DNA of 64,000 nt from Candidatus Minthosoma caballi (GCA_018064505.1 JAGHVC010000024.1:28845-92844); one strand, 5' to 3'. Positions 16,893 through 39,266 are shown, numbered from the stretch's first letter. The notes: generated by a model not told the origin, from the sequence alone. Program-made: numbers and translations.

Positions 16893-16898
16893 GTGTAT

Positions 16899-19133: not shown

Positions 19134-19245
19134 ATCTTGTTTTGATTCGTTTACAAGCAGAATTTTGTTGCTGTTCTCTATTGGATGTACAGCAAAAACA
19201 TAAAAAATCAACTTATATAATTATAAATAATCACAAAAAAACACT

Positions 19246-19917
19246 ATGAATATGAAACGCGTATTTTTAGCTATACTTATCTGTTCAATCAGCACACTTG
19301 CTTTCGCTCAAAACATTGATGTAAAGAAAAAGGGAGGCATTAATCCTAAGGAATGGAAGGCAAATGAATCTGCCACTATCAGCATCAATCGTATTCCAAC
19401 GACTATTGAAGAATTCAAGCAGGTTCAAAGCGAAATCGGCACTACACCAGAAGGCGCTGTCATGCTTCAGCTATTGGCAATGGAAATGTACAATCAAAAT
19501 CCGACTGTAGGAACTGAGTGTATCAAACTCAACAACATACAATCAAACCAATCATCAGTTCTTAGCCGCATGCCTGAGATTTTCAGCAAAAAGGACATGA
19601 ACTATGCTCGTCCTCATCTCGTAGCAACATTCTTCAATGGCTCTACACCTCAGAATGGTTTCAACCCAAAGAATCCATACACTATCCAAGTACGCACTCG
19701 TGCAAATATGCAGTATCAGCGCTCTGAAATGATGAGGGGCTATGTTCTATACCTTGAAGTTTACAGTTCTGGTTATCAAACAAGCCCATGGCGTTCTGTA
19801 GAAGTAATTAAGCAGAAAGGCAGCGAGTTCTTCCAAGTCAGCAACTCCCCTGCACTCTATGTACAGTGCATGGATGTTGACTTCGACAGCGACAGAGACT
19901 ATGAAGGGCTAAAGTAA
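19246..19917 (+). CDS. Hypothetical secreted protein
   Basis: 223 aa with signal peptide MNMKRVFLAILICSISTLAFAQN. No family recognised. Confidence 0.5.
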   Translation: MNMKRVFLAILICSISTLAFAQNIDVKKKGGINPKEWKANESATISINRIPTTIEEFKQVQSEIGTTPEGAVMLQLLAMEMYNQNPTVGTECIKLNNIQSNQSSVLSRMPEIFSKKDMNYARPHLVATFFNGSTPQNGFNPKNPYTIQVRTRANMQYQRSEMMRGYVLYLEVYSSGYQTSPWRSVEVIKQKGSEFFQVSNSPALYVQCMDVDFDSDRDYEGLK

Positions 19918-19959
19918 CCGTCGTAATTCATAGGTTTCACTTTTATATTTATAACAACA

Positions 19960-20874: not shown

Positions 20875-20940
20875 TATAATTTCGAAGACTATTCCCCATT
20901 AACTTAATACAAAAAAAGAACAATAACAACACCTATAGAT

Positions 20941-22020
20941 ATGAAGAAAGCATTCATTATAGCACTTGCTCTCATCATGCAACTCAGTGCTTTTGCGGAC
21001 GGGAACCCTATGTGGAATAACTATGGCAAGACCGTACAAGTAAAAGGAGGAGCAGGCATAGAACAATTCGTCGAAGCTATATTAGGCTATAAACCAGACG
21101 ATTGGTCAAGAGACCCTGTATATGACAAGCGAAACGGATTCTTCCACTATTACGAGGAAGGCAGCGGACACATAGAATACTATGTCAGCTACTGGAATCG
21201 CAACGACGGCAAGAAGCTTGTCATCATGTCATACGACGAAGCCGACTTCGGCAAACCAATCACACCACAGTCATCTCCATGGGGATACTACAGCACCACT
21301 ATGGTTGCCGACAATGACATGGAGTCTGAAGCGGAAGGCGTCAATACTGATACAGGCTTCCGAGCTTATCTCTACGACGAGGCAAAGAAGCAGCTCACGC
21401 CATTGACTACTCCCCCATTCAATGGATTTGACAATCCTGTAAATAATCACTATCTGCTCATGCTGCCTCAGCAGGGAAAGGATATCCGAGTTCGCGAGCA
21501 GAAAGACGAGGCAGGATTCTTCGTTTACCACACACTAAAATGGAATGGAATGACTTTCGATTTCATAAGAGAAGGAAATGTTGTAGCATCATTCTTTGGC
21601 ACAGAGGCAAATATTAATATCCGAACTGCTCCTAATGGGAGAATAGTATATACTACCCCAAATACAGGTGAATACAGTTTTGATATCGTTAAGATCGAGA
21701 ATGGCTGGTGCCTTATAGATGGAACAAGCATCTATGAAAACGAAGAAAGCACTATGATTGAACTTAACGGCTCCAACTCTGGATACTGGGTTCACTCTTC
21801 ATGCATTGGTGCAAAAGGAGGAAATGGAGATGGAGCTGTCACACTTCTTGCCTCGCCAGATGACAATGCCAAGGTTGTGTACAAGAGCAACGACTACACA
21901 ATCATTGAGCCAATTGAAATTCGTGGCGAATGGGTTAAAGTACGAGCTCGTGTAAGCAAAAAAGTTGGTTGGATAAGAATATACGACATGTGTTCTAACC
22001 CTCTCACAAACTGCTGCTAG
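20941..22020 (+). CDS. Hypothetical secreted protein with possible C-terminal SH3b-like repeats
   Basis: 359 aa with signal peptide MKKAFIIALALIMQLSAFA. Two SH3b-like segments are NIRTAPNGRIVYT...GWCLI and LLASPDDNAKVVYK...GEWVKVR...GWI. Confidence 0.45.
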   Translation: MKKAFIIALALIMQLSAFADGNPMWNNYGKTVQVKGGAGIEQFVEAILGYKPDDWSRDPVYDKRNGFFHYYEEGSGHIEYYVSYWNRNDGKKLVIMSYDEADFGKPITPQSSPWGYYSTTMVADNDMESEAEGVNTDTGFRAYLYDEAKKQLTPLTTPPFNGFDNPVNNHYLLMLPQQGKDIRVREQKDEAGFFVYHTLKWNGMTFDFIREGNVVASFFGTEANINIRTAPNGRIVYTTPNTGEYSFDIVKIENGWCLIDGTSIYENEESTMIELNGSNSGYWVHSSCIGAKGGNGDGAVTLLASPDDNAKVVYKSNDYTIIEPIEIRGEWVKVRARVSKKVGWIRIYDMCSNPLTNCC

Positions 22021-22120
22021 ACCATCCTACAAATACTACTAACATAGCAGACTTTACAGGTGCGAACAATAACCATCCTAAAGATGGAAAACAAGCATTA
22101 AAACAATAAACCTTATCAAT

Positions 22121-23896
22121 ATGATAAAGAATATATTAACAATAGTATCCTTCTTCGTAGCCACTACAGGCTTTGCGCAAAACGATGCATGGAGCAAGGT
22201 GACTAACTGGAACAAATACTTTGAAAATGACCTCGAGAACATAGTGGCCTATGCCCTTTACGATATCGACGGTGACGGAATCAACGAAGCATTCGTGCGC
22301 GACGAAGCCAACTGCTACGGCTGTCTCTCATGTGGTGGTGGAGAAATCAAGGCCGTCACAAACTCAATCATGACTACTGATCTTTATTACTGTAAAGGCA
22401 TACCATATGTCATCCATAAGGGAGGTTGCGGAACTGGTTGTTTCCACAAAGAAATATGCAAGATAGAGAAGAGTAAGCTTACAACGCGTTTGCTTGACAT
22501 TGCATATTATGGCCCTGAAGGTCAGGAAGAGCACGAATGCAGCACTCACAAGACTGGAGAGGACAAAGACATCAGCTATGCCCAATTTCAAAAGCTGGCT
22601 CCAAAATTGAATGATTTGAAACACATGACAACTCTCAAATGGATTCCTGTTACTTCTGTTTCAAACACTCCTAAAGCTGCTCCTACATCTGACCTTGCCA
22701 CACTTCACGCTGTCAATGGCGATACTGTTATCATCAAGGATTCAAAGGGATACCTCTATCAGATTATGAGTGACGCAAGCGTTGGTGTTGCTCCAGGCGG
22801 TGCATACTCTGGCGACATAGTCATTCCGTCACAGATTAAGTATGAGGGACGCACACGCAATGTCACTACTGTTCGCCGTGGAGCTATGTGGAAAAAAGAA
22901 GGAACCTCAAATATTGGCAACATAACTTCCATTACCCTTCCTGAGACAGTCACTCTTGTCGGTGCAGATGCCTTTCGTGGCAATGCCAACCTTACTGCTG
23001 TCAACTACAGCGATAAGACTCGCATTGAGGTACGCTCATTCTGGGGATGTCCAAAGCTTCAGATTGAGCAGAATGAACCTGCATATGCATTTACCGAACC
23101 TACAGATTATTCAGAAGAGAATAGCGCTGCTACACGCGAAGCCTTCACACGAATGTACTATCCAACTGAGGAGCCTGACATGAAGGTTTCTCGATACAAT
23201 TGGGCATTCTTCAAATACAACCATAGCGGCATTGCCTTCGACTCTTGGAAAAACTTTGACAGCGAAAATGCTATGGCTTGTTTCTGTTGGCGCATAAAGA
23301 ATGTCAAGTCAGGCCTATTTCGTCTTCTGAATCCTGACAATGTAGAGCCTATGTTCAAGGGGTATCTTGAAGGCTCTGAGAATGTTATGCTTGCAGACAA
23401 TAACTATGTTGCCACACATGAGTTCCCTATGTTCAGTCGCTGGATATGGGGTGAGCAAGAGAAATCAATGCCTAAAACTTTCGTAGCAGCTATGGAAAAG
23501 AAGTACGGTCGCAAGGCTAAGTACAGCTATGAGTGCGGCAAACTCCTATATTCTACAAACGAGCAACTTGCCATCACTGAGTTTGTCATCACAAACCATG
23601 AGTGCATGTATGTTCTCTCTTGGCTGAAAGACGGCAAAGAAGTGTGCAGTTATATGGACAAGCGTCCTGTTGAGCCTGGATATGAGGAATTCAGCGTCTG
23701 GAATGTTGACGACGAGGGAGACTATGGCATTCCAAACATTATGACTATTGCTCGTGACGAGAAAGGCAACATCGAGCTCTTCCTCTTCCACGGAGCACCA
23801 GAGAGCTTCAACTTCATGCATCTTGCTCAGAGAGGCAACAAGTTTGAACAGATTGGTGATGATCATTGGTACAACTGGATTGACAGTCCGGAGTAA
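22121..23896 (+). CDS. Secreted protein with a BspA-type leucine-rich repeat segment
   Basis: 591 aa with signal peptide MIKNILTIVSFFVATTGFAQ. It has an FG-GAP-like DIDGDGINEAF string. The central segment IPSQIKYEGR..VTTVRRGAMW...ITSITLPETVTLVGADAFRGNANLTAVNY...IEVRSFWGCPKL resembles LRR_5 (BspA-like) repeats. Confidence 0.5.
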   Translation: MIKNILTIVSFFVATTGFAQNDAWSKVTNWNKYFENDLENIVAYALYDIDGDGINEAFVRDEANCYGCLSCGGGEIKAVTNSIMTTDLYYCKGIPYVIHKGGCGTGCFHKEICKIEKSKLTTRLLDIAYYGPEGQEEHECSTHKTGEDKDISYAQFQKLAPKLNDLKHMTTLKWIPVTSVSNTPKAAPTSDLATLHAVNGDTVIIKDSKGYLYQIMSDASVGVAPGGAYSGDIVIPSQIKYEGRTRNVTTVRRGAMWKKEGTSNIGNITSITLPETVTLVGADAFRGNANLTAVNYSDKTRIEVRSFWGCPKLQIEQNEPAYAFTEPTDYSEENSAATREAFTRMYYPTEEPDMKVSRYNWAFFKYNHSGIAFDSWKNFDSENAMACFCWRIKNVKSGLFRLLNPDNVEPMFKGYLEGSENVMLADNNYVATHEFPMFSRWIWGEQEKSMPKTFVAAMEKKYGRKAKYSYECGKLLYSTNEQLAITEFVITNHECMYVLSWLKDGKEVCSYMDKRPVEPGYEEFSVWNVDDEGDYGIPNIMTIARDEKGNIELFLFHGAPESFNFMHLAQRGNKFEQIGDDHWYNWIDSPE

Positions 23897-23914
23897 CATC
23901 GGAAAAGCCAATTT

Positions 23915-23948
23915 GGGCTTGAAATAAACACAGAAGCCCTTTCTTTTC
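23915..23948 (+). terminator. Putative terminator of the secreted-protein island
   Basis: GGGCTT-N13-AAGCCC followed by TTTCTTTTC. It lies directly before the left end of the inverted-repeat cassette. Confidence 0.5.
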
Positions 23949-24250
23949 GATTTTCACTTCCCCACATACCCTTTCATCGGTAAGCGATTGGGGATTAACA
24001 AACTACACAGGGTAAGTGTCCATGCCGGCACTTACCCTTTATTTTCCCCAATACTTACCCCGAACACTTTCACTAACCGCAACCCACCACTTCTAAAAGC
24101 TAAGGCGGCCAAAAGTCCGTTCGAGCAGATATGGCGTTTTTTTGCGTCAAATCGCAACTAACGACAGAAAAATAACACCGAGACACATTACGCAACATCA
24201 TTGCGTAAGATGCCTCGAATGTATAATCAGCGGATAGTGGAACCTATCCT

Positions 24251-24580
24251 TCAAAAAACAGCTGCCACGCGTCGCAATGCAGATAGTCGCTGGAGGAAAG
24301 TAGGGCTATTCTTTGTTTGTTGTAAATTATAGTCCATTTGAATCCTGAGCAGAGGAGCAGCGTTGACTCCAAGCACAGCCTCTATCAGCAACGCCATTTC
24401 TGGAGTCAGCTGTCGTTTTTTGTTCAGCATCTCATTAAGCTGAGAATATGACACACCTATCTCTTTCGCAAACTGTCGCTGCGAAATCCGTCTAAATTCA
24501 AGCTCGTCCTTAATTATCTCACCAGGGTGCGTTGCAACAAATGGTGTTGCGTCATTAGCAGAAAACTTTTGTGTTGCCAT
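24251..24580 (-). CDS. higA: HigA-family antitoxin (XRE-type HTH)
   Basis: 109 aa. HPGEIIKDELEFRRISQRQFAKEIGVSYSQLNEMLNKKRQLTPEMALLIE matches the HigA/VapI HTH pattern. It lies 6 nt downstream of the toxin gene. Confidence 0.85.
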   Translation of the reverse strand: MATQKFSANDATPFVATHPGEIIKDELEFRRISQRQFAKEIGVSYSQLNEMLNKKRQLTPEMALLIEAVLGVNAAPLLRIQMDYNLQQTKNSPTFLQRLSALRRVAAVF

Positions 24581-24586
24581 ACTATT

Positions 24587-24904
24587 TTAGCTATAATGAT
24601 TTGACAATTCTGTAATGTTGCAGATTGTGGCAATCTCCTTGCCATCTTCCAATTCTTCCTTAAACTCTATGCGGTATTGGTCATTGACTCTGACAGAAGA
24701 TAACCCCTCCTTGTCTCCATGCAGATGCTCATAGTGCAGTGACCCATATTTAGCAAGCCCCATCACATTGTCTTCAGCCGTCATCAGTTTTATCACGCGT
24801 ATGTATTTGTTGACTATCTGTGGCTGAAAACGATGTTTCTTATCATTCACCTTTCCTTTCGTATAAAGGTCATAGAGATATTCTTGCTCAAAGTTTACCG
24901 TCAT
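24587..24904 (-). CDS. higB: HigB-like toxin (RelE/ParE superfamily, plasmid maintenance killer type)
   Basis: 105 aa. LHYEHLHGDKEGLSSVRVNDQYRIEF resembles the HigB motif (L.G...G..S.R.N.Q.RI.F). The toxin-first gene order is typical of higBA. Confidence 0.8.
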   Translation of the reverse strand: MTVNFEQEYLYDLYTKGKVNDKKHRFQPQIVNKYIRVIKLMTAEDNVMGLAKYGSLHYEHLHGDKEGLSSVRVNDQYRIEFKEELEDGKEIATICNITELSNHYS

Positions 24905-24926
24905 ACGCTAAATTATGAATTTCATG

Positions 24927-24934
24927 CAAAGATA
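24927..24934 (-). promoter_or_regulatory. Candidate -7 box (TATCTTTG) for higBA
   Basis: The reverse strand reads TATCTTTG, 22 nt upstream of the higB ATG at 24904. Confidence 0.45.
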
Positions 24935-25136
24935 GCAAATTCATCTTCTGTTCGCAAATTTGTTAACACTTTTATGTCTAGGACACTTTGAAAAGTTACC
25001 AAAACACAGAATCTTTGCAGGATACATAATCAATCGAGGCATCCTGTGCTAAAAAAATAGCAGGGATGCCTCTGATAGAATTATGCGTATAGGAAAGACT
25101 GGATTGACTAAACCTTGGAGCGAATCAATGGAGCCT

Positions 25137-25166
25137 GTCCCCCATGATTTTGTCCCCCATGATTTT
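25137..25166 (+). repeat. Perfect 15-bp tandem duplication (GTCCCCCATGATTTT x2)
   Basis: Read directly from the sequence: units at 25137-25151 and 25152-25166. It lies in the non-coding part of E1. Confidence 0.9.
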
Positions 25167-25208
25167 CCCTACAACCCGACCTCTTTCCCAACTCACAGGG
25201 TGTGAGTT

Positions 25209-25290
25209 GCGGTTCGCATAAGGTAAGAGAAGCGGTTCATAAAGGGTGTAAGACGCGCTTCTCAAAGGGCGTGAGATTGAGGTTCCAAAA
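25209..25290 (+). repeat. Degenerate ~23-bp direct repeats containing GGTAAG-like motifs
   Basis: GCGGTTCGCATAAGGTAAGAGAA / GCGGTTCATAAAGGGTGTAAGAC / GCGCTTCTCAAAGGGCGTGAGATT / GAGGTTCCAAAAACG. The AAGGGTGTAAG-type cores resemble the GGGTAAGT motif of the element ends. They are preceded by the hairpin CAACTCACA-GGG-TGTGAGTTG. Confidence 0.6.
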
Positions 25291-25317
25291 ACGAAGATTG
25301 CACCACTTTTTCCCTCT

Positions 25318-25412
25318 CAAAACCTTGCGCCCGTCACGCTTGATCGCTTACGCCTTGTAAGCCTTATCGCTTACGCCCGAAAAGCGATAAGGCTTCACGG
25401 GCAGAGACTTTT
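25318..25412 (-). repeat. Y-shaped palindromic intergenic repeat, copy C2 (inside E1)
   Basis: TTGCGCCCGTCACGC ... GCTTACGCCTTGTAAGC ... CCTTATCGCTT-N9-AAGCGATAAGG ... CACGGGCAGAGAC. Its ends are the reverse complement of the C1 and C3 ends. Confidence 0.75.
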
Positions 25413-25693
25413 CAGTCTGATTCTTGGAGGAGCCCCCTCTAGCTCCCCCAGAGGGAGGATAGCCATTCGGAATGACATCAGCAATACTGCCATGGTACTC
25501 TCTGTGGATGGTAAGTGTCAACATTGGTACTTACCCTATGCAACTCATTCATTTCCTACAAATTAGAAGCAAAAGGGGGGTAAGTAGGGAAGTAGAAATG
25601 GAAAAACACAAGAATGCTGAGTAAAATGATGGGAAAACGCTATTTTTGCATCGAAAACATTGACAAATGCGAGGAAAAGCGGAAAAAAGAATG

Positions 25694-25701
25694 TAACTTT
25701 G
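25694..25701 (+). promoter_or_regulatory. Candidate -7 box (TAACTTTG) for the rhamnogalacturonan lyase gene
   Basis: Matches TAnnTTTG, 51 nt upstream of the ATG at 25752. A second candidate, TATTTTTG, lies at 25641-25648. Confidence 0.45.
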
Positions 25702-25751
25702 CAAAAATAACGGAACTTATGCACGAAATTAACTTTACTCAACACACCATC

Positions 25752-28190
25752 ATGAAAAGATTACATATATTTGCAGCATCACTGCTGCTTTCATCTATCG
25801 GAGCAACTGCGCAAGTGACTCCTATCAGCCAGATGGAGAAACTTGACCGTGGCGTTGTGGCTCTGCCATCGCAGACGAGCGGCATGTTCGTCAGCTGGCG
25901 TTTTCTTGGCACTGACGATGCCGACAACACCTCATTTGATGTTCTGCGCGACGGAATAGCTGTGGGCAAGAATATCACTAAGTGCACTTGCTATAATGAT
26001 GCTATCGGAAAATCAACAAGCGGATATCAAGTAGTGACAAAAGTGGATGGAGTGGCGATTGACACCACTGACATCGTGAAACCTTGGTCACAAGTGTATA
26101 AGACGCTGAAGCTTGACCGTCCAAAAGAAGGTGACTTAGGAGAAGGGACTTACACTTATTCCCCTAACGACATAAGCGTGGGTGATGTTGATGGCGACGG
26201 AGAGTATGAATTGTTTGTGAAATGGGATCCTTCCAACTCCAAAGACAACTCTCAAAGTGGCATCACTGGCAATGTGTATCTCGATTGCTACCGTATGGAT
26301 GGTACAAAGCTGTGGCGCATCGACCTCGGAAGGAATATCCGTGCAGGCGCTCACTACACACAGTTCATGGTGTATGACTTCGATGGCGATGGCCGTGCAG
26401 AGATGATGTGCAAGACCGCTCCTGGCAGCAAGGACGGAATGGGCGAATATGTGAATCAAGCAGCTACCGACACGAAAATCAAAGCTGCATCGAATTCAAA
26501 GAGCTGGGTAGTGAGTGGCGGCCGCATTGATGGAGGTCATGAATATCTCACTGTGTTTGAAGGCTCTACAGGCAAAGCGATACACACCATTGCTTACAAC
26601 CCAAACCGCAATGCTTCTTCCACTCTTAATGAGGCAACCGGCACTTTCAATTGGGACGACAGAAGCGGAAAGAGCGACAAGGGCAACTACGGCAACCGCG
26701 GCGAGCGATTCCTTGCTGCCGTAGCCTCGCTTGATGGCCCTGATGCTCCGCCTTCGGGCATCTTCTGCCGTGGATACTACACCTTTGCTTATGTGTGGGC
26801 TGTAGATTTCGACGGCAAACAGCTCAAACCTCGATGGCTGCATAAGTCGGCATCTAAGACAAGCTACAGCGTGGTTGACTACACAGAGAGCGCAGCTGGA
26901 AAGACAAAGACATACACAGCACCGGCAAGCAAGTCGGGCTCGGGCAAGAACACCCTCTATGCCAACGGCAATCACAACATCTCTGTAGCCGATGTTGATG
27001 GTGACGGAAAAGACGAAATCATCTACGGCTCAGCAGCTCTCGATGATGACGGAAAATTGCTTTACAGCGTTGGCTTTGGTCATGGCGATGCTATGCACCT
27101 CGGCGACCTCGACCCTACTCGCGAAGGAATGGAAGTGTTTCAAGTGCATGAAGAAAAAGGCACCTACTCGTGGGATGTGCACGATGCTGCCACAGGCCAG
27201 ATACTCTTCAAGGGCGGCAATAGCGGAGTGGACAACGGCAGAGGCATTGCTGCACAACTCTCATCAAGCCACTATGGCTACTATTTCAGTTCGAGCGACG
27301 ATCGTCAGCAGCGCAGCGCTGTGACTGGCAAGGCAGTGTCTTCGGGCAACACATCGCTCAACTTCCGCATCTATTGGGACGGCGACCTTCAGGATGAGCT
27401 CTTCGATGGCGGCAAGATTGACAAATGGAACGGCAGCGGCACAACGCGCCTCTACATAAAGGGAAAGAATCCGTACGACTACAACTCATCAAGCACTTGC
27501 AACAGCACGAAGTCTACACCAAATCTGCAAGCCGACATCTTTGGCGACTGGCGCGAAGAGATAATATTGTGGAACTCGCAAGACGGGGCAACGCTCAACA
27601 TCTTCTCTGCCAACACCACCACAAACTACCGAGTACCTACGCTCATGCACGACCACACCTACCGCATGGGCATTGCATGGCAGAATGTGGCATACAATCA
27701 GCCGCCACATCTTGGCTACTATCTGCCCGACATGTTCCGTACCACTTTCAAGCCAAAGGATGAGCACTCGCTGGAACAGACCGTGGAGTGTGGCGACAGC
27801 ATTCTCGCCATGACAACAGCATACCTCAACTGCACCTCGATAGCCGTTGATTCAACCTACACCCCTACGGGAAACATAAAAGGCCTGGATGAAGCATTCC
27901 AGATGAAGCGCGACCTTGCCACTCACTCAGTCATCATCACGGGAAAGCCTGAAGTGGCTGGCGACTACACCATAGTGCTGCGCGGCTCTGGCAACTCCAA
28001 CTTTGCTGGCAATGCATATCACACCCTCACCATCCATGTTTTGCCATCGGTGGGCATAGCCTCTATACAGACCAAATCCACCCCAGTCATCTACGACCTC
28101 AGCGGCCGCCGAATGACAGGCAGCCACCTTCCATCAGGAGTGTATCTGCTGAAAGAAAACGGCGTGGTGAAGAAGATAAGGATAAAATAG
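25752..28190 (+). CDS. Rhamnogalacturonan endolyase, polysaccharide lyase family 11 (YesW-like), with a T9SS C-terminal sorting domain
   Basis: DVDGDGEYELFVKWDPSNSKDNSQSGITGNVYLDCYRMDGTKLWRIDLGRNIRAGAHYTQFMVYDFDGDGRAEMMCKTAPGSKDG is near-diagnostic for PL11 (B. subtilis YesW/YesX). The signal peptide begins at MKRLHIFAASLLLSSIGATAQ, which puts the start at 25752 rather than the track's 25614. The C-terminal VIYDLSGRRM....LPSGVYLLKENGVVKKIRIK fits the T9SS type A CTD pattern. Confidence 0.88.
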   Translation: MKRLHIFAASLLLSSIGATAQVTPISQMEKLDRGVVALPSQTSGMFVSWRFLGTDDADNTSFDVLRDGIAVGKNITKCTCYNDAIGKSTSGYQVVTKVDGVAIDTTDIVKPWSQVYKTLKLDRPKEGDLGEGTYTYSPNDISVGDVDGDGEYELFVKWDPSNSKDNSQSGITGNVYLDCYRMDGTKLWRIDLGRNIRAGAHYTQFMVYDFDGDGRAEMMCKTAPGSKDGMGEYVNQAATDTKIKAASNSKSWVVSGGRIDGGHEYLTVFEGSTGKAIHTIAYNPNRNASSTLNEATGTFNWDDRSGKSDKGNYGNRGERFLAAVASLDGPDAPPSGIFCRGYYTFAYVWAVDFDGKQLKPRWLHKSASKTSYSVVDYTESAAGKTKTYTAPASKSGSGKNTLYANGNHNISVADVDGDGKDEIIYGSAALDDDGKLLYSVGFGHGDAMHLGDLDPTREGMEVFQVHEEKGTYSWDVHDAATGQILFKGGNSGVDNGRGIAAQLSSSHYGYYFSSSDDRQQRSAVTGKAVSSGNTSLNFRIYWDGDLQDELFDGGKIDKWNGSGTTRLYIKGKNPYDYNSSSTCNSTKSTPNLQADIFGDWREEIILWNSQDGATLNIFSANTTTNYRVPTLMHDHTYRMGIAWQNVAYNQPPHLGYYLPDMFRTTFKPKDEHSLEQTVECGDSILAMTTAYLNCTSIAVDSTYTPTGNIKGLDEAFQMKRDLATHSVIITGKPEVAGDYTIVLRGSGNSNFAGNAYHTLTIHVLPSVGIASIQTKSTPVIYDLSGRRMTGSHLPSGVYLLKENGVVKKIRIK

Positions 28191-28201
28191 CAAAAAGAAA
28201 C

Positions 28202-28240
28202 AAAATGCAACCTTCAGCAATGGGGGTTGCATTTTGTTTG
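28202..28240 (+). terminator. Rho-independent terminator after the lyase gene
   Basis: AAAATGCAACC-N12-GGTTGCATTTT followed by GTTTG. Confidence 0.75.
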
Positions 28241-28250
28241 CTAACTTAGC

Positions 28251-28281
28251 TTTGCTACTTTTGAAAAAATCAGTAACTTTG
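28251..28281 (+). promoter_or_regulatory. Bacteroides-type promoter (-33 TTTG, -7 TAACTTTG)
   Basis: TTTG at 28251-28254, a 19-nt spacer, then TAACTTTG at 28274-28281. This places the S1 element in the 5' leader of the oxidoreductase gene. Confidence 0.55.
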
Positions 28282-28290
28282 CAGACGGAA

Positions 28291-28380
28291 TCAGGACAAT
28301 GACGAAAACGATGACTCGAGAAATCGTTTAATTGATTATACGATTAATCGGGAAAACGATGACGATAACGACGACTAACG
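28291..28380 (+). promoter_or_regulatory. S-element copy S1 (AT-rich repeat with a TTAATYG palindromic core and hexamer-periodic flanks)
   Basis: GGACAATGACGAAAACGATGACTCGAGAAATCGTTTAATTGATTATACGATTAATCGGGAAAACGATGACGATAACGACGAC. By eye it is near-identical to S3 across the core. It lies between the promoter and the coding start. Confidence 0.7.
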
Positions 28381-29558
28381 ACCAATCAACTTCCACACTC
28401 ATGACAACAGAAGTTCTCATCATAGGCGCTGGCCCTGCTGGCAGTGCGTGTGCAATATCCCTGCAAAAAGCGGGGGTGGACTGCATCGTGGCAGACAAGG
28501 CAGCATTTCCACGCTTCAAGCTGTGCGGCGGACTCATCACCCAGAAAGGGCAAGACTGCCTTCGCGAGGTGCTGGGCAACGACGCCTACGAGCAATGCAT
28601 GGAAGTATGCGTGAGAGGCAGAGAGCAATATTTCGCACTGTGGGATGAATGCAAACGCATAGTGAGAGTGAAGCTCGACAACAACATCGTGCTCATCGAC
28701 CGCCCTACGATGGACAACTGGCTCGTGCAGCACTACAAGTCGCTGGGAGGCAGAATCATGGAGGGCAACGGAGTGAAAAGCATCGACTTTGCCGCCCATG
28801 TGGCAGTGCTCGAATCGGGCGAAGAAGTGAGCTACAAGAAGCTCGTGGCAGCCGACGGAGTGCACAGTCCCGTGGCACACATGCTCGCCGATGCCGACAA
28901 GCGATACAAGCTCAACAAGAAAGGGTGCTTCTGCCTTGAAGTGTTCGTCGATGAGAAAGATTGCGACATTGAGGATGTGAACATCCATTTCAACCTCGTG
29001 CCAAACTTCTACACATGGGCATTCAAGAAAGGCAACCAAGTGGCAATAGGATTGGGCAAGCTGACAACCGACAAGATTGACATCAAAGAAGTGCTGATAG
29101 ACTACATGAAGCGAATGGGAGTGAGACAAGGAGCAGAACAGGCATCTGCCCCCATCCGCGGAGCCGTCATCCCTTCCGAAGTGCGCCAAGCCGAATGGAA
29201 GAGCGCCGATGTGCTGTTTGCTGGCGACGCAGGCGGATTCGTCGAGCTGCTCACCTACGAAGGCATCTACTACGCCATCCGCAGCGGAAGCTATGCAGCC
29301 CAGAGCATCATCAGCGGCACATCCTACACACAACTCGTGCGTCCTATGCACCGCAAGATGCAGTACGGCAGCTTCTTCCAGAAGTTCATCTACTGGAAGC
29401 CATTCCTCAACATCATGTGCAAGTACGGCAGCACACACGGCGCCTTTATAGCCAAATTCTATGCCGACAACATTGACAACATACCATCCAAGCCACTCTG
29501 GAAGCAGATTGCCATTGTGCTGATGAAAACCGTGAGAGTGGCAGTGAAAAGGAAGTGA
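28359..29558 (+). CDS. FAD-dependent oxidoreductase, geranylgeranyl reductase-like family
   Basis: The dinucleotide-binding motif VLIIGAGPAGSACA...VADK is followed by the GGR-family RFKLCGGLIT string. The start is uncertain: TTG 28332 (track), ATG 28359 (context AAAACGATGACGATAA is shared with the SGNH gene start at 33881), or ATG 28401 (MTTEVLIIGAGPAG). Confidence 0.75.
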   Translation: MTITTTNDQSTSTLMTTEVLIIGAGPAGSACAISLQKAGVDCIVADKAAFPRFKLCGGLITQKGQDCLREVLGNDAYEQCMEVCVRGREQYFALWDECKRIVRVKLDNNIVLIDRPTMDNWLVQHYKSLGGRIMEGNGVKSIDFAAHVAVLESGEEVSYKKLVAADGVHSPVAHMLADADKRYKLNKKGCFCLEVFVDEKDCDIEDVNIHFNLVPNFYTWAFKKGNQVAIGLGKLTTDKIDIKEVLIDYMKRMGVRQGAEQASAPIRGAVIPSEVRQAEWKSADVLFAGDAGGFVELLTYEGIYYAIRSGSYAAQSIISGTSYTQLVRPMHRKMQYGSFFQKFIYWKPFLNIMCKYGSTHGAFIAKFYADNIDNIPSKPLWKQIAIVLMKTVRVAVKRK

Positions 29559-29581
29559 AAGAAAAGCAAGAAGCAAGAAAT

Positions 29582-30337
29582 ATGGAAAAAGAAACAGAAC
29601 ATACAACAGCACACACTCCGAGAACTTTGGTCGATGTTCACACCCACACCATAATGTCGGGCCACGCATTCAACACCGTGATGGAGATGATAGCCGCAGC
29701 TCAGGAAAAAGGACTGAAGATATTCGGCATCACCGAGCACGGACCAGGCATACCAGGCACATGCCATCCGCTCTATTTCCGCAACACCCATGTAGTGCCT
29801 CGCCAGTGGGGCGACATGCGCCTGCTGATGGGCGCCGAGATGAACATACTCGACACCAAGGGCACTCTCGACCTCGACGACTTCCACTGCAGCCTACTCG
29901 ACATACGCATTGCCGGCATACATCAGCTGTGCTGGAAAGGAGGCACAATAGAAGAAAACACCGACGGTATGGTAGCAGCCATCCGCAACAAATGGACTCA
30001 CATCATCTCACATCCAGGCGATGGCACAGCCGACCTGCTGTTCGAGCCCATAGTGCTTGCCGCAAAAGAGTCGCACACCCTGCTCGAGATCAACAACAGC
30101 ACATTCAAGCCATCGCGCGGCAAGACAGCCAAGGCACGCCCCCTCAACCTCGAGATTCTCCGTCTCTGCAAGCAATACGAAGTGCCTGTCATTCTCGGCA
30201 GCGATGCCCACATCAGTTTCGACATTGCCCGCTACGACTTCGTCCTCCCCATGCTTGCCGAAACCGAATTCCCCGATGCACTCGTCATGAACGACAAGCC
30301 AGAACTGTTCCTGAAATACCTTAGCATTGACGAATAA
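29582..30337 (+). CDS. PHP-domain phosphatase (YcdX-like)
   Basis: VDVHTHT...GITEHGP...GAEMNI...IAGIH...ISHPG...LEINNS...GSDAH is colinear with E. coli YcdX metal-binding motifs. The track start (GTG 29555) overlaps the upstream stop, so I prefer ATG 29582. Confidence 0.85.
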   Translation: MEKETEHTTAHTPRTLVDVHTHTIMSGHAFNTVMEMIAAAQEKGLKIFGITEHGPGIPGTCHPLYFRNTHVVPRQWGDMRLLMGAEMNILDTKGTLDLDDFHCSLLDIRIAGIHQLCWKGGTIEENTDGMVAAIRNKWTHIISHPGDGTADLLFEPIVLAAKESHTLLEINNSTFKPSRGKTAKARPLNLEILRLCKQYEVPVILGSDAHISFDIARYDFVLPMLAETEFPDALVMNDKPELFLKYLSIDE

Positions 30338-30338
30338 T

Positions 30339-30361
30339 AAAACGATGACTATGACAAATCG
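30339..30361 (+). repeat. Truncated S-element fragment S4
   Basis: AAAACGATGACTATGACAAATCG, compared with AAAACGATGACTCGAGAAATCG in S1. It lies directly after the PHP gene stop. Confidence 0.45.
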
Positions 30362-30702
30362 CCATACGGAACAAAACAAGAAGGAACATCACTATAGTGC
30401 AAAAGAACACAAAATTGTTCTGTTGGGTAACACACGAGTTTGTTCGGATTGAAATTCTATAATTTCTTAAATAGAACGATTTGTGGACACAAAATTAGTC
30501 AGAGCATTATTAATAGAGAATTTTAACTGTTTTTTTTGGGGGGCAAACCTTAACACATCTATTGACTGTTTGGGAAAAATAATTACCAATATGAGAAAAG
30601 TAAGTTTTATCTTTACTGCTTTGTTTCTTTTCCCTATTCATCTCATAGAAATACTTAACATCAAAAAGACTCTTCACCAACTTTGATTTCTCTCCCAAAA
30701 TT

Positions 30703-31228
30703 CCCTTTTTCTACTTCCCCACTTACCCTTTAGGTCATAACCAACAGATAATTAAGGCATTACAAGGGGTAAGTATCCTACTTCACACTTACCCTTTACT
30801 TACCCTGAACCTACCACATGGAGCAAGCTGCAAAGGGTTGCTGTTTTTGTGTTTCTGTTTCGTCGCAATCGAGTTGTTGACAAAACTATGTTTACAGGGG
30901 CTTCAGCATAATGTTGTGACGGCAACTGCGGTAATTTGATTGCGGTTCTTCCGTAATGTTATTCCTGCAACTGCCGTAATGATGTTACGGTTCGTCCGTA
31001 ATTGTTTTACGGAAGTTTCAGGAAAAGTTTTACGGCGGAGGGCTGCATTGTGGAGAATATGAATACAAGGAAATGAGAGCATGAACATCTCTTTTGGGGC
31101 CATATAGGGTAAGTCTGGGGTAAGTAAAGGGTAAGTGTGAAGCAGGACACTTACCCTATGTATTTCATTTATTCTCAATCATTTGCAGCCTAAAGGGTAA
31201 GTGGGGAAGTAGAAACACAGAAAAAGGG
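30703..31228. mobile_element. Inverted-repeat element E2 (about 0.5 kb, MITE-like, no credible ORF)
   Basis: A perfect 27-bp terminal inverted repeat: TTTCTACTTCCCCACTTACCCTTTAGG (30708-30734) and CCTAAAGGGTAAGTGGGGAAGTAGAAA (31189-31215). The imperfect inverted-repeat arms extend to about 115 bp. There are nine GGGTAAGT/ACTTACCC copies. The subterminal hairpins are at 30767-30794 and 31129-31156. Confidence 0.75.
30922..31006 (+). repeat. Tandem ~45-bp direct repeat in the centre of E2, with CCGTAA-N5-TTACGG hairpins
   Basis: GCAACTGCGGTAATTTGATTGCGGTTCTTCCGTAATGTT (30922-30960) and GCAACTGCCGTAATGATGTTACGGTTCGTCCGTAATTGTT (30967-31006). Hairpins CCGTAATGATGTTACGG and CCGTAATTGTTTTACGG are present. 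Confidence 0.7.
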
Positions 31229-31278
31229 TTTCTACGCAAACCTTTGGTGCAGAATGTGAACACCTATATTCCCCCACC

Positions 31279-32865
31279 TTAGAACTGGAAATATATGAAT
31301 GGCTGCACATCGCTGCTCTTTATCTGGATGACAATGAAGATGAGGATGATGAGGATGAGGGCTTTGAGGAGGAGCGGCATCTTGATGATGAGCGACCTGC
31401 TCTTGTCTGTCCATGAGTCGGGAAGCAGGTGGAGCACATAGCCGAGGAGCATGAGGGTGGCTACTGCCCAGTAGGATTCTACCCACTGCATGAACACTTG
31501 GGGCTGGAACTGGGTGAGAATCTGAGTGAACACCTGATTGGCTATGCCGAAGCTCTGGGCACGGAATAGCACCCAGCATGCTGCCACGAGATGGAAGGTG
31601 ATGAGGGTGGAGAGGGCTGTGAGAAGAAGGAGGGGGAATTTACGGTTATGGTTTATGTTATCGCTCACTGACTTCTTGCCTGGCAGGTAGGTGAGAGGGC
31701 TTGCTGCTGGACAGATGCTGTGCCAGATCTTGTCGATGCAGAGGAAGAGGCCATGCAGTCCTCCCCAGAGGATGAAGTTGAGGGATGCGCCGTGCCATAA
31801 GCCTCCGAGGAGCATGGTCATGAGCAGGTTGAAGTACTGACGGAACTTGCCGTGGCGATTGCCTCCCATGCTGATGTAGAGGTAGTCTTTGAGCCACGAT
31901 GAGAGGCTGATGTGCCAGCGACGCCAGAACTCGGTGATGCTGGCGGATTTGTATGGGCTGTCGAAGTTCTTGGGGAACTGGAATCCGAGCAGGAGGGCTA
32001 TGCCTATTGCCATGTCGGAGTAGCCTGAGAAGTCGCAGTAGATTTGCAGGGTGTAGCCATAGACGGCGAGGAGATTTTCCACTCCGCTGTAGAGGTCGGG
32101 CTGGTCGAACACTCGCTCGACGAAGTTGACGCTGATGTAGTCGCTGATGACGGCTTTCTTGAAGAGGCCTGCCATGATGAAGAATACGCCTGAGCCGAAC
32201 ATCTCGTTGCTGATGTGGAGGGGACGGCGTATCTGGGGGATGAAGTCGCGGGCACGAACGATTGGTCCTGCCACGAGCTGGGGAAAGAAGGACACATAGA
32301 AGGCGTAGTCGAGCAAGCGGCTGAGGGGCTTGATGTTGCCTCGATAGACATCTATGGTGTAGCTGAGCGACTGGAATGTGAAAAATGAGATGCCCACGGG
32401 GAGGAATATGTCGCGGGGCTGCCATGCCACGCCTTGGAGGTAGCTTCCTGTGATGGCTGGCGGCACATGGAATCCGTAGCTGGAGAGGATGGTGCAGATG
32501 GTCTCGCCGAGGAAGTTGGTGTATTTGAAGAAGACGAGGAGACCGAGGTCGAGCACGAGAGACAGGAGCACGAGGGTCTTGCCCAGTGCGCCCTTCCCTA
32601 CTCCGCTGAGGGCTTTAGCTATGAAATAGTCGGTGATGGTGACCAAGGCAAGGAGCACGAAGAAGAGTCCGCTGCTTTTGTAGTAGAAGAAGTAGGAGAA
32701 CAGCGTGACGAAGAGTATGCGCAGCGTGTCTGCTTTGCCGAGGAGGCTGTAGATGAGCGAGAAGCCGAGAAACAGGAAGAGGAAGATTCCGCTGATGAAT
32801 ATCATCGGACTATCTGGCTGGTATATGAATTGGTCTATGACCCTTTGAAAATCTATGTCGAACAT
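31279..32865 (-). CDS. MBOAT family O-acyltransferase (AlgI/PatA/DltB-like)
   Basis: 528 aa and polytopic. FWRRWHISLSSWLKDYLYISMGGNRHG and LLGGLWHGAS are the MBOAT signature regions, including the conserved His. Confidence 0.88.
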   Translation of the reverse strand: MFDIDFQRVIDQFIYQPDSPMIFISGIFLFLFLGFSLIYSLLGKADTLRILFVTLFSYFFYYKSSGLFFVLLALVTITDYFIAKALSGVGKGALGKTLVLLSLVLDLGLLVFFKYTNFLGETICTILSSYGFHVPPAITGSYLQGVAWQPRDIFLPVGISFFTFQSLSYTIDVYRGNIKPLSRLLDYAFYVSFFPQLVAGPIVRARDFIPQIRRPLHISNEMFGSGVFFIMAGLFKKAVISDYISVNFVERVFDQPDLYSGVENLLAVYGYTLQIYCDFSGYSDMAIGIALLLGFQFPKNFDSPYKSASITEFWRRWHISLSSWLKDYLYISMGGNRHGKFRQYFNLLMTMLLGGLWHGASLNFILWGGLHGLFLCIDKIWHSICPAASPLTYLPGKKSVSDNINHNRKFPLLLLTALSTLITFHLVAACWVLFRAQSFGIANQVFTQILTQFQPQVFMQWVESYWAVATLMLLGYVLHLLPDSWTDKSRSLIIKMPLLLKALILIILIFIVIQIKSSDVQPFIYFQF

Positions 32866-32890
32866 TTAATGGTGGTTTAATTTCTTTAGT

Positions 32891-32972
32891 TTTGAGCTGT
32901 CATCGTTATCGTTATAGTCACCCCGATTAATCGATTAAACGAATTATCGATTTCTCGAGGCATCGTCTTCGT
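32891..32972 (-). promoter_or_regulatory. S-element copy S2
   Basis: In gene orientation: ACGAAGACGATGCCTCGAGAAATCGATAATTCGTTTAATCGATTAATCGGGGTGACTATAACGATAACGATGACAGC. It lies between the SGNH stop (32973) and the MBOAT start (32865). Confidence 0.7.
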
Positions 32973-33881
32973 TTAAAACCCTTTCATGCTCTTGTATGGT
33001 TTCTTTTCTTGTGGCGTGGAGCCATGCATCATGCGTGTCTGCGAGCCTGAGGTTGGCGTGTTGCTATATGCCTTGAATATGGCTTCGCCGAGCAGTTTGC
33101 CTTGCAGGATGTAGCCTTGGGCTTGATAGTGTATCTGATCCACTGCCATGAGTCCTGCTCCCGACCAGTTGCTTGGGGCTGAGTGCCCTCCTGCGATGGT
33201 GAAGATGTCCCACACGGCATAGCGATTGGAGTGGCAGAAAGAGACGATGCTGCGTGCCACTTTCTCCGTGTTGGCTATGTTTGGCACCTTCGAGGTGGTG
33301 TAGTGCGTTTTCTTGTATCGCCCTTTGCCTGTGGTGTAGCTGCCTGTGCGATTGGTGATGTAGCTGCCAGGTGGCGTGGTGAAGAGGAACGAGACGCCTG
33401 GGCAACGCTCCTTGATGCGCTGGGTGAGCAGCTGCATGGTCTCGGCATGGACACGCTCATCGATGGAGTAGGCATGTGCCTCGTTTGTGCCGAAGGACAA
33501 CACCACGAGGTCGGGATGCTCTGCTGCTACGCGCTGAATCATGTCGTTCTCGTAGAATCGTCTTGCCCATGCTCCGTTGATGCCGTAGTAGGCAAACTCT
33601 ATGCGAGGAAAGTACCCCTCAAGGGTGGAGCCAAGGGTGCGAGGCAGATAGTTGCCACGCACATGGGAGTCGCCGATGTGCATCACCTTCACGGTCTTGC
33701 CTGCCTTGAGCTTCTTGAACACTGGCTGAAGCGAGGAACCGTCGATAAGTTCGTTGCTGTGAGTGTTGCGGAAGCTGGACGGGAAGGGGGTGAAAAGCGA
33801 CTGTGCTTCGACTGTCACCGCGCATAGAATGGTGGCTGTCAAGCACATAAGCTTCAATATATTTCTTTTGTTTATCGTCAT
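32973..33881 (-). CDS. SGNH/GDSL hydrolase-family protein (PatB/Ape-like), secreted
   Basis: 302 aa with signal peptide MTINKRNILKLMCLTATILCAVTVEAQ. SGNH blocks are GDSHV (I), YGINGA (II), FGTNEA (III), and DQIHY (V). Confidence 0.75.
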   Translation of the reverse strand: MTINKRNILKLMCLTATILCAVTVEAQSLFTPFPSSFRNTHSNELIDGSSLQPVFKKLKAGKTVKVMHIGDSHVRGNYLPRTLGSTLEGYFPRIEFAYYGINGAWARRFYENDMIQRVAAEHPDLVVLSFGTNEAHAYSIDERVHAETMQLLTQRIKERCPGVSFLFTTPPGSYITNRTGSYTTGKGRYKKTHYTTSKVPNIANTEKVARSIVSFCHSNRYAVWDIFTIAGGHSAPSNWSGAGLMAVDQIHYQAQGYILQGKLLGEAIFKAYSNTPTSGSQTRMMHGSTPQEKKPYKSMKGF

Positions 33882-33964
33882 CGTTTTTCGTGATTGTCAT
33901 TGTCAACCCGATTAATCGTATATCGATTAAACGATTTCTCAAGTCATTGGACATCGTTATATGC
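33871..33964 (-). promoter_or_regulatory. S-element copy S3
   Basis: In gene orientation: ATAACGATGTCCAATGACTTGAGAAATCGTTTAATCGATATACGATTAATCGGGTTGACAATGACAATCACGAAAAACGATGACGATAAA. The core palindrome is TTAATCG-ATATA-CGATTAA. It fills the whole gap between the 501-aa SGNH gene stop and the 302-aa SGNH gene start. Confidence 0.7.
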
Positions 33965-35470
33965 TCACTTCATTCGATTGTCATAGTTTTCTTTGCCATT
34001 CATCAGCACCTCGAAAAGAAGTTCTGCCAAGTGGCGACCGCCAGCAAAATTGATGTGAGTATAGTCGAGATTCGCCTGCTTGTTCTCCTTCATTCGGGCT
34101 ATGCTGCCATCGCCTCCCATTGCCTCATAGAGATTCCAGAATGCCACATGGTGGTCGCTTGCCATCTTTCGCTCGTAGGATATCAGCTCCTTCACTCCAC
34201 CCATTGTGTGCATCAAGCCGTCGGAACCTTTCTTGTCGCGGTCACCCATGCTGACCACGAGGATGCTTGCTTTTGGATATGCAGCTTTGAGATGGGCTAT
34301 GGCATTGCCAAGGCGCGAGGTGTAGGCACTGTAGTCTTTCTGCTTAGGACCTGCTACATTCAATCCATACTGAATGATGATGAGGTCGTATGGTCGCTCG
34401 TTGGCAAAGCTGCGCATGGTTTCCTGAGGGATTGTCTCGATGAACTGACCGCCACTGCCTCTCATGCTGAAGTTGTCCACTGCCACACCATGACGGCCAT
34501 CGAGGGCTACACCATAGAAACGGGAACCGCTGCCTCCAGACACCGACATGTTGAACTTGCCGATGCGACCTGTCACTGACTTTGACACAAGCACTCCTGC
34601 TGCTTGCTGAGCATGTGACGGCGTGACACGACGACGACGATACACCACTGAGTCTTTTACCGTGGTGTCAATCTCCTCCACATATTCTTCGGCTGGTGCA
34701 GCACCGCCGCCAGAGTAGAGAGTGGAAGAAGGGCCTCCATTGAGAGAGTAGTCGATGTTCAAGCTGCTGCTAGGAGTGAAATACACTGTGGCAACCTCGG
34801 CTGTGTCGAGAAGATTGGCATACACATTATTCTGCCCTCTCAGCTCGAAGGTTGCTGTGCCACCTGGCACAAAATAGCTGCCTGCCATGCCTTGCAGAGA
34901 GTTGCTGAATCCATGGCCTTTTGCATTGGAGTAGTAGCAACTCCAGCCAGAGCGCTTGGCATTTACGGAGCGGCGGAAGCCCGATGAAACACAGTTAATT
35001 TCCACAAAACCAACGCCTTTGCCACCATACTTGCCTTGCAGCATTCCTCTCAAGTCCATAGTGAGGATATCGCCCTCAATGTAAGAGTCGCTGTAGTATG
35101 CCACTCTCACGAGTCGGTTGCGAGCTTGGTCGAGAGCCGAGTAGAACAAGTCCATCTCGCGATTCAATCCCTGAGCATCAGCAAAGTCTTCAATAGCCAC
35201 CATGCCTTTAGGGATGGAATCTACATATTCCAGCCTCTTCACCATCACTGCAGCAGAGTCGATGCCCTGCTCCACAAAGCCATCTATGGAGTCTGCTTTC
35301 ACCTCTGCTATGATCTTGCCATCAGCTGTGCGCTGCTGCACATCGCTAAGAATATTCACACGACGCAAGTCTGTGCCAGCAATGTTGATTCGTGGCAAAT
35401 AGAACAAAGCGAATAGTGCCACAAGCACTATCAGGGTAAGCACGAATGTTTTCCAAACATTATTTTTCAT
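33965..35470 (-). CDS. Membrane-anchored SGNH-like hydrolase/acyltransferase (501 aa)
   Basis: N-terminal TM anchor (WKTFVLTLIVLVALFALFYL). SGNH-like blocks are YYSDSYIEG (I), IIQYGLNVA (III), and DYTHINFAGG (V). Confidence 0.6.
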   Translation of the reverse strand: MKNNVWKTFVLTLIVLVALFALFYLPRINIAGTDLRRVNILSDVQQRTADGKIIAEVKADSIDGFVEQGIDSAAVMVKRLEYVDSIPKGMVAIEDFADAQGLNREMDLFYSALDQARNRLVRVAYYSDSYIEGDILTMDLRGMLQGKYGGKGVGFVEINCVSSGFRRSVNAKRSGWSCYYSNAKGHGFSNSLQGMAGSYFVPGGTATFELRGQNNVYANLLDTAEVATVYFTPSSSLNIDYSLNGGPSSTLYSGGGAAPAEEYVEEIDTTVKDSVVYRRRRVTPSHAQQAAGVLVSKSVTGRIGKFNMSVSGGSGSRFYGVALDGRHGVAVDNFSMRGSGGQFIETIPQETMRSFANERPYDLIIIQYGLNVAGPKQKDYSAYTSRLGNAIAHLKAAYPKASILVVSMGDRDKKGSDGLMHTMGGVKELISYERKMASDHHVAFWNLYEAMGGDGSIARMKENKQANLDYTHINFAGGRHLAELLFEVLMNGKENYDNRMK

Positions 35471-38944: not shown

Positions 38945-38952
38945 CAAAGTTA
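38945..38952 (-). promoter_or_regulatory. Candidate internal -7 box (TAACTTTG) upstream of thrC
   Basis: The reverse strand reads TAACTTTG, 25 nt upstream of the thrC ATG (38919). It lies within a 347-bp gap in the thr cluster. Confidence 0.45.
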
Positions 38953-39266
38953 CGCCTTTTCTTTCGATACTCAAAGGTTTCTGTATTGAAAAATGCTGAT
39001 TACCACATTATTGTTACCTAAAAAGATGGTAATTTGCAAATCTCACAACCGCAATTAAGATGAAATAAAGACGATAAAACAAAGCGAAACTTGCGTTTTT
39101 TAAGCCACAAGTCCCGCTTTCGCCAATCATAAGTTCCGTTTTGTGAGTCGCAACTTATGTAATTGTTATTTTCTAAGTTTCTTTAGAGCAGAGATTGCTC
39201 TATTCTTTTTATGGAACAACATGAAAGAACACTGATATTGTCAAATGTTTCTTCTATTTATCCTAA

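Follow-up and report, generated by a model that had tools for sequence, protein, structure and literature searches.

Among known repeat systems, the one that appears closest in behaviour to the element considered here is the family of mycobacterial interspersed repetitive units (MIRUs), reportedly described by Supply et al. in 1997. Our element, which we call S, is a repeat unit of ~75-110 bases found in a 64,000-nucleotide stretch of DNA from Candidatus Minthosoma caballi (GCA_018064505.1, JAGHVC010000024.1:28845-92844; hereafter 'the window', with positions counted from its first letter), where it consists of a hairpin with simple hexamer tracts on both sides. MIRUs are units of 40-100 bp that reside in operons, are oriented with the genes, and are missing from the orthologous sites of M. 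leprae; they are inserted at start codons with a coupled internal open reading frame (ORF), and their length varies between strains (PMC3184786, PMC12548453). Their inverted repeats are rich in G and C (PMC3184786).

Two other kinds of repeat bear on the comparison. The palindromic repeats tagged by GTAG or CGTC (repetitive extragenic palindromes, REP) are short stem-loop palindromes (20-40 bp, up to ~65 bp) in extragenic DNA that carry an unpaired tetranucleotide at one end of the stem, and between cistrons REP hairpins function as barriers or as sites of processing (PMC3733652). Such repeats are dispersed in many copies over the genome and go with a RAYT transposase of the IS200/IS605 type. 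[quoted passage not shown]

With moderate confidence, we interpret S as a young, lineage-restricted, non-coding intercistronic insertion repeat of the REP, MIRU or MITE kind, which has been locally amplified and whose probable transcript would contain an mRNA hairpin and, with it, an A-rich region for initiation. It fits none of the named families and is most suitably classed as a new, tiny one among the small interspersed intergenic palindromic repeats. The copies in the window are as follows:

28294-28382, plus strand: S1, a full copy upstream of the FAD oxidoreductase gene; 80.9 bits (profile and covariance models, alignment, repeat scan)
28294-28314, plus strand: left hexamer arm of S1, GGACAATGACGAAAACGATGA
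28315-28352, plus strand: hairpin core of S1, between the two arms
28353-28382, plus strand: right arm of S1, AAAACGATGACGATAACGACGACTAACGACC
32866-32972, minus strand: S2, a full copy occupying the whole 107-nt gap from the 302-aa SGNH gene to the MBOAT gene; 84 bits
33882-33964, minus strand: S3, a full copy occupying the whole 83-nt gap from the 501-aa SGNH gene to the 302-aa SGNH gene; 77.2 bits
30339-30361, plus strand: S4, a candidate arm-only remnant, AAAACGATGACTATGACAAATCG, immediately 3' of the PHP stop codon

S1, S2 and S3 can be aligned over ~75 nt in the same orientation relative to their genes. The repeat scan recovered S1 and S2 as an inverted match (80% over 74 nt) and S1 and S3 as two inverted matches (83% over 35 nt and 92% over 26 nt), and the 12-mer CGATTAATCGGG has exactly three occurrences, one in each full copy. 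When the 64 kb were searched with a profile hidden Markov model (HMM, run with --max) and with a covariance model (filters off), S1-S3 were the sole matches, at 77-96 bits, and the next non-self match scored no more than 14 bits. The alignment and both models thus bear out the initial annotation of this DNA, which had described three full copies in these places, each directly upstream of a gene and co-oriented with it. All copies lie within 5.7 kb, and none was found in the remaining 58 kb of the window. MIRUs, in contrast, occupy 40-50 dispersed loci, whereas S is present as three copies and one trace at a single locus.

The same annotation listed S4 as a fragment of the element. As a whole-element copy S4 is not significant (E = 3.4 with the profile HMM and 0.34 with the covariance model). 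However, the arms of S, which are GAYRAY hexamer tracts, carry the direct repeat AACGATGAC, and this string occurs five times in the window against 0.47 expected, with all five occurrences held by S1 (two), S2, S3 and S4. S4 is therefore credible as an arm-only relative, and a unit-number polymorphism like that of the other copies also fits this assignment. Two further candidates were rejected, namely a match at 20376-20423, which is a coding stretch rich in Asp and Asn, and weak matches at the 3' ends of MBOAT genes, which reflect an antisense GATGAN periodicity.

The distribution of S outside the window is narrow. We examined the orthologous loci of six other species (L008, L009/L010, L027, L028-L030 and L031), whose SGNH proteins are 72-77% identical, and S was absent from all of these operons by both nhmmer and covariance model searches. 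In these relatives the two SGNH genes overlap or are 19-20 nt apart (range -11 to 20 nt), the SGNH-MBOAT junction measures 3-6 nt (64 nt in L008), and the MBOAT-FAD junction 12 nt. S was found in four assemblies only, which share 98-100% DNA identity: the window, L007, L043 together with L045, and L044. MBQ0021892.1, a protein of Candidatus Minthosoma caballi, has the same sequence as the SGNH protein of the window.

Larger collections were scanned with the pattern GAGAAATCG-N12-18-CGATTAATCGG for species genomes and with an N8-30 version for metagenomes. These scans, which needed 20 exact bases and may not include the Ca. Minthosoma caballi genome, gave six matches among 185,579 species genomes, all in unrelated phyla and about as many as estimated for chance; 16 matches in Joint Genome Institute (JGI) metagenomes, none of which agreed beyond the pattern itself; and 11 matches in viral contigs, representing one homologous, unrelated coding sequence in related low-GC viral contigs. 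A BLAST search of plasmids and phages gave no match to S1. Because the orthologous junctions are empty, the copies are confined to four assemblies of one species, and the collection scans are null, S is, as judged by these comparisons, an insertion specific to this lineage rather than a conserved family. The empty orthologous sites of six species parallel the absence of MIRUs from M. leprae, although the host phylum of S is Bacteroidota.

Two observations at the orthologous junctions concern other sequences. A match to the 3' half of S in L008 (ATCGGGAA...ATGACGA) was rejected as a trace of an ancestral junction from which S derives; it is missing from L009 and L027, and an 8-mer match of this kind is estimated to arise by chance with a probability of ~0.3. 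In L031, the 72%-identity relative, an unrelated 226-nt insert occupies the SGNH-SGNH junction (5775-6000), with a promoter-like TAACTTTG motif, two GC hairpins and AATGTAGAATGT direct repeats on its flanks. Insertions seem to recur at this junction.

The core of S is an imperfect palindrome of 38-50 nt, in which a 13-bp stem is interrupted by a GA/AA internal loop. The predicted stem-loops are:

28315-28352, plus strand: S1 stem-loop, with P1 CUCGA/UCGGG, a 2x2 internal loop GA/AA, P2 AAUCGU/ACGAUU and an AT-rich 12-nt apical part
32920-32961, minus strand: S2 stem-loop, with P1 GCCUCGA/UCGGGGU, the GA/AA loop and P2 AAUCGAU/AUCGAUU
33905-33945, minus strand: S3 stem-loop, with P1 GACUUGA/UCGGGUU (three G.U pairs), the GA/AA loop and P2 AAUCGU/ACGAUU

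The shared stem can be written as a P1 of 5-7 bp, (G)(A/C)CU(C/U)GA with UCGGG(G/U)(U), and a P2 of 6-7 bp, AAUCG(U/AU) with (A/AU)CGAUU, separated by the internal loop. It closes a variable loop of 10-18 nt made of TCGWTTAA 8-mer units. In S2 both the loop and P2 are composed of the 8-mer units CGATTAAT (period 8, 3.6 copies by Tandem Repeats Finder), and the same program reports period 16 in the S1 core and ~9-10 nt in an arm (GACGATAAC). The 6-nt periodicity proposed for the flanks is confirmed by this program, and an 8-nt periodic core is added to it.

The same stem topology is the minimum-free-energy fold in every S copy, with energies from -12 to -20 kcal/mol and z scores from -2.9 to -4.2. 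For the window copies the values are -12.2 kcal/mol and z -3.5 (S1), -17.3 and -3.45 (S2), and -12.1 and -2.9 (S3). The antisense strands reach only -8.4, -11.9 and -7.6 kcal/mol, respectively, the last with a different topology, such that stem stability favours the sense strand by 4-5 kcal/mol; this bias is due to three G.U positions. Among five sequences, 96.9% of stem cells pair, a figure that falls to 20-48% once the 3' partners are shifted by 1-3 columns, and in two pairs both bases are exchanged (A-U/C-G and U-A/A-U). A search for compensatory changes, which the initial annotation had recommended, therefore succeeds for this long-range stem but not for the two small hairpins that had been proposed, which show no covariation, are partly broken in S2 and S3, and fit the copies less well.

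Such features are those expected if S were a conserved structured cis-regulatory RNA, such as a riboswitch, a leader or a protein-binding motif: the hairpin shows a sense-strand bias, carries two covarying pairs and an invariant internal loop, and is co-oriented with the genes in every copy. We nevertheless consider this reading extremely improbable. Rfam gave no match at gathering score in the window, and none of its 12 weak matches (E <= 10, within 28100-34200) overlaps S. The structure amounts to one simple hairpin, with a loop that differs in length between strains, it is not conserved at the same junctions in any other species examined, and the scans of large collections were without a match.

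Compared with REP sequences and the related bacterial interspersed mosaic elements (BIMEs), S is likewise a short imperfect palindrome in intergenic or intercistronic DNA, presumably transcribed and predicted to form an mRNA hairpin of 38-50 nt, and a role in setting the relative expression of cistrons is plausible for it. S differs in that no GTAG or CGTC stands beside the stem, whose neighbouring tetranucleotides are ATGA/AAAA (S1), GATG/GACT (S2) and AATG/GACA (S3); the antisense strands of S1 and S3 have a CGTC at distances of 10 and 31 nt from the stem, respectively, and S2 has none. In S, moreover, an AT-rich stem closes a long, variable loop, the copy number is very low (three in 64 kb, at one locus), and scanning of 44 window ORFs revealed no RAYT/IS200-type transposase domain. 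S shares imperfect inverted repeats with MIRUs as well, but it is AT-rich where MIRUs are GC-rich, a distinction drawn from the published description of MIRUs and not from an alignment of sequences.

The genes around S were assigned with Pfam. On the minus strand lie ThrC, 7TM-HD, SGNH (501 aa), SGNH (302 aa) and MBOAT genes, and convergent with them on the plus strand are the FAD oxidoreductase and PHP genes. In L008, whose SGNH protein is 74% identical, the genes ThrC, 7TM-HD, SGNH, SGNH, MBOAT, FAD and PHP follow one another on one strand, with junctions of -1, 64 and 12 nt, the 64 nt being sequence unrelated to S. Because of this co-linearity, the two convergent gene sets of the window are one ancestral operon with an inverted FAD-PHP tail, and the earlier suggestion that two convergent operons share one regulator is not supported. 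S3, S2, S1 and S4 then mark four successive junctions of the ancestral operon, all oriented with the genes, with S1 at the MBOAT-FAD junction. In filling intercistronic gaps (S2 and S3), in lying at such an ancestral junction (S1) and in their common orientation, the copies resemble MIRUs, and co-transcription with the genes, presumed for S, would be a further likeness.

Putative promoters were located by a motif scan:

28251-28281, plus strand: Bacteroidetes-type promoter motif TTTG-N19-TAACTTTG, ~10 nt 5' of S1; repeat-scan family D5
38945-38975, minus strand: promoter-like motif 5' of thrC, from the motif scan and gene order

The window has eight sites of this motif, compared with 1.4 expected, and none lies within S2 or S3. 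Since such motifs precede S1 and thrC and are lacking in S2 and S3, S1 is probably the 5' leader of a FAD-PHP transcript, the motif upstream of thrC is probably the promoter of the transcript carrying S3 and S2, and these two copies would be intercistronic RNA. The proposal of an RNA leader or intercistronic structure thus holds for the likely placement of S on transcripts but not for a conserved leader or riboswitch, given the empty Rfam result and the S-free orthologues.

The first option offered earlier was that S is a DNA operator, now formulated as the binding site of a dimeric transcription factor that co-regulates both gene sets. The palindromes on which it was based are present (TTAATCG-N5-CGATTAA in S3 and TTAATCGATTAA in S2), and S1 lies just downstream of a promoter motif. 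However, these palindromes arise because the tandem units contain TCGA and TTAA, and the half-sites TTAATCG and CGATTAA differ in spacing from copy to copy and between strains: they overlap in S2, are 5 nt apart in the S3 of the window and 6 nt apart in S1 and in the S3 of L007 and L043, and are separated by one additional 8-mer unit in the S2 of L007 and L043. Two of the three copies reside between cistrons without a promoter motif, and the conserved stem has T.G mismatches that are tolerated only in RNA. No DNA-binding domain was found by Pfam in the operon genes scanned, and the nearest helix-turn-helix (HTH) protein (24251-24580) has a HigB-like toxin as its partner and resembles an antitoxin. 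With S also absent from orthologous operons, an operator function is very unlikely.

The neighbourhood of the operon holds further features. A MITE-like unit at 30701-31222, with 115-nt inverted arms that are 78% complementary, 292 nt apart and composed of GGGTAAGTG...CACTTACCC palindromes, sits exactly at the MBOAT-PHP inversion junction, and pieces of its relatives occur at two other intergenic sites (23938-24050 and 25508-25598). A second dispersed intergenic family of ~108 nt, with GCCCGTCACGC... palindromes, is found in both orientations at 9080-9187, 25307-25414 and 53660-53767. Comparison of 16062-30337 with 12558-16539 of L008 reveals ~12 kb of accessory genes between the inverted FAD-PHP pair and a block encoding acyl-CoA dehydrogenase, electron transfer flavoprotein (ETF) and PriA. 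The accessory genes comprise VanW-like, methyltransferase, DUF6935, DUF3298, leucine-rich repeat (LRR), HigB/HigA-like and RGL11 lyase genes; the HigB-like toxin (105 aa) and the HTH_3 antitoxin-like protein (109 aa) are encoded 5' of the RGL11 lyase at 24251-24904 on the minus strand.

That S belongs to a genome-wide family of MITE- or REP-type miniature mobile elements, with a transposase encoded elsewhere and the present copies forming a local cluster of a larger dispersed family, is unlikely but deserves more weight than the operator or the conserved RNA. Both filled and empty sites occur among the species, the stem arms resemble imperfect terminal inverted repeats of 12-13 nt, the core has direct repeats on its two sides (AAAACGATGAC in S1, ATGAC in S3), and the two other dispersed repeat families in the window suggest a genome permissive for such elements. 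Nevertheless, the copies are crowded at successive junctions in one orientation, and no further match was found in the genome, metagenome and viral collections scanned. The direct repeats vary in length (11, ~6 and 5 nt) and form part of a polymorphic hexamer tract, no Pfam transposase domain was detected in the 44 long window ORFs scanned, and the stem is not adjoined by the GTAG/CGTC tag of REP sequences (PMC3733652). S resembles the P. gingivalis MITE in being a Bacteroidota intergenic repeat with inverted-repeat ends and strain-variable internal tandem units; S is far smaller, its tandem tracts also flank the palindrome, and neither a dispersed family nor a parent insertion sequence came to light for it.

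Of the three options offered by the initial annotation, a small intergenic mobile repeat co-opted inside operons comes closest to the evidence. All length differences of S among the assemblies are of a slippage type and fall in the loop or the arms. The loop of S3 gains or loses one T, the loop of S2 has one extra TTTAATCG unit (+8 nt) in L007 and L043, an S2 arm carries a further 30-nt hexamer tract in L007, and S4 is 12 nt longer (GATGACTATGAC) in L045. Over the 12 kb in which L043 was compared with the window, two of the four gaps lie inside S (S2 and S3). No stem base differs among strains, an observation that carries little weight at ~1% divergence. Strain-dependent length is another property held in common with MIRUs, but S varies by sub-units of 1, 6, 8, 12 or 30 nt, whereas MIRUs vary by whole-unit tandem copies.

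Two strain-specific observations stand apart. In one strain, S1 (L045, ~1256) and S3 (L043, ~8904) carry the same G-to-A change in the 5' arm, AACGATG to AACAATG, which could reflect gene conversion or a parallel CpG-type mutation. The apparent fragmentation of the MBOAT gene in L007 was rejected as a gene-calling artefact, as its 528-aa ORF is intact.

Translation initiation in Bacteroidota is favoured by A-rich contexts rather than by Shine-Dalgarno sequences. Two start codons are associated with S arms:

33879-33881, minus strand: start codon of the 302-aa SGNH gene, inside the arm string AAAACGATGACGATAA, which is common to S1
28359-28361, plus strand: ATG in the right arm of S1, in frame with the FAD oxidoreductase and in the A-rich context GGGAAAACGATG

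The proposal that AAAACGATGACGATAA provides the start-codon context of the 302-aa SGNH gene, and possibly of the oxidoreductase, agrees with these positions. The orthologues of the SGNH gene likewise start with ATGACG. The ATG at 28359 has As at -3 to -6 and lies 42 nt upstream of the ATG at 28401, which is the one that aligns with orthologue starts. Owing to S, start-codon calls differ between assemblies: the FAD gene was called at 399 aa from the S1-internal ATG in another assembly (P0125) and measures 385 aa if started at 28401, and the SGNH gene was called at either 291 aa (P0001) or 302 aa (P0121). Placement at or beside start codons is also seen in MIRUs.

Small ORFs within S depend on the allele. 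In the S3 of L007 and L043, a predicted 25-codon internal ORF ends in ATGA on the start of the 302-aa SGNH gene, which recalls the coupled ORF of MIRUs, whereas the S3 of the window and L044 has a 111-codon out-of-frame read-through instead. The S2 allele with 8 additional nucleotides has an internal ORF of 14 codons rather than 25. An internal ORF with -4 coupling at the flanking start is confined to the S3 of L007 and L043 and is not seen in the S3 of the window, in S2 or in S1. Thus, the internal ORF of S differs from that of MIRUs in not being conserved among copies and alleles, and the candidate interpretation of S as a conserved micro-gene was rejected because frame and length vary.

In other bacteria, O-acetyltransferases are known whose phase variation is driven by simple repeats. 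With this precedent, S could be a hypermutable contingency locus, in which changes in unit number shift the small upstream ORFs and thereby tune or switch translation of the O-acetylation genes from strain to strain or cell to cell. The clustering of strain indels in S, the one-base change that toggles S3 between the short ORF and the read-through, and the truncation of the S2 ORF by the extra 8-mer would all be in keeping with such a device. The comparison rests on four assemblies, however, the one-base change of S3 is not in a homopolymer, the small ORFs are predicted only, and frames differ among the copies with no common design visible. We therefore regard a contingency function as quite doubtful.

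Returning to the interpretation of S as a locally amplified insertion repeat, the following series of events would account for its present arrangement. In the Ca. Minthosoma caballi lineage, S would have been copied locally into the SGNH501-SGNH302, SGNH302-MBOAT and MBOAT-FAD junctions, leaving an arm-only trace after PHP. The FAD-PHP tail would have been inverted after this spread and would now be under its own promoter. S is predicted to be transcribed together with the genes, and its sense-strand hairpin should form on the mRNA, where, in the manner of REP hairpins, it might be a barrier or a site of processing from one cistron to the next. The unstructured A-rich arm that follows the hairpin could supply or frame the downstream start codon. 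In this way, S would replace the tight coupling seen in relatives (overlap or 3-20 nt) by independent initiation. Function of this kind is something that we infer, and S may be close to neutral.

A more ambitious version has S as a self-propagating junction cassette, made of the hairpin and the ATG-bearing A-rich arm, that serves, through its length changes, as a hypermutable switch of translational coupling among surface O-acetylation genes. Such a cassette would be peculiar to Shine-Dalgarno-poor Bacteroidota, and it would spread from junction to junction, bring a start codon with it and vary in length through slippage. We give this version only a slim chance of being correct.

Several points weigh against our interpretation of S as a transcribed insertion repeat. 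Whole junctions of ~100 nt are no more stable than shuffled sequence (z -0.1 to -1.4), such that only the core hairpin, and not the junction, stands out in folding. Evidence of covariation is thin, with only three independent S copies, and a DNA palindrome would keep the complementarity equally well; the asymmetry of G.U pairs (three events versus none) is the sole point that favours RNA over a DNA palindrome. What we say on transcription, on folding and on possible effects on stability or translation is read from sequence. The direct repeats of 5-11 nt are unlike a fixed target-site duplication, and they look more like microhomology within the hexamer tracts. Finally, the status of S as a purely local element rests on 64 kb and on negative collection scans.

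The significance of S is modest, and it reveals no new conserved regulatory RNA or operator. It already causes inconsistent start-codon annotation of the SGNH and FAD genes, and it offers a strain marker resembling a variable-number tandem repeat (VNTR) for an uncultured Bacteroidales species of the horse gut. With its filled and empty sites and four strain alleles, S also shows cleanly how a small hairpin repeat can settle in the tight operon junctions of Bacteroidales and bring in or frame start codons there.

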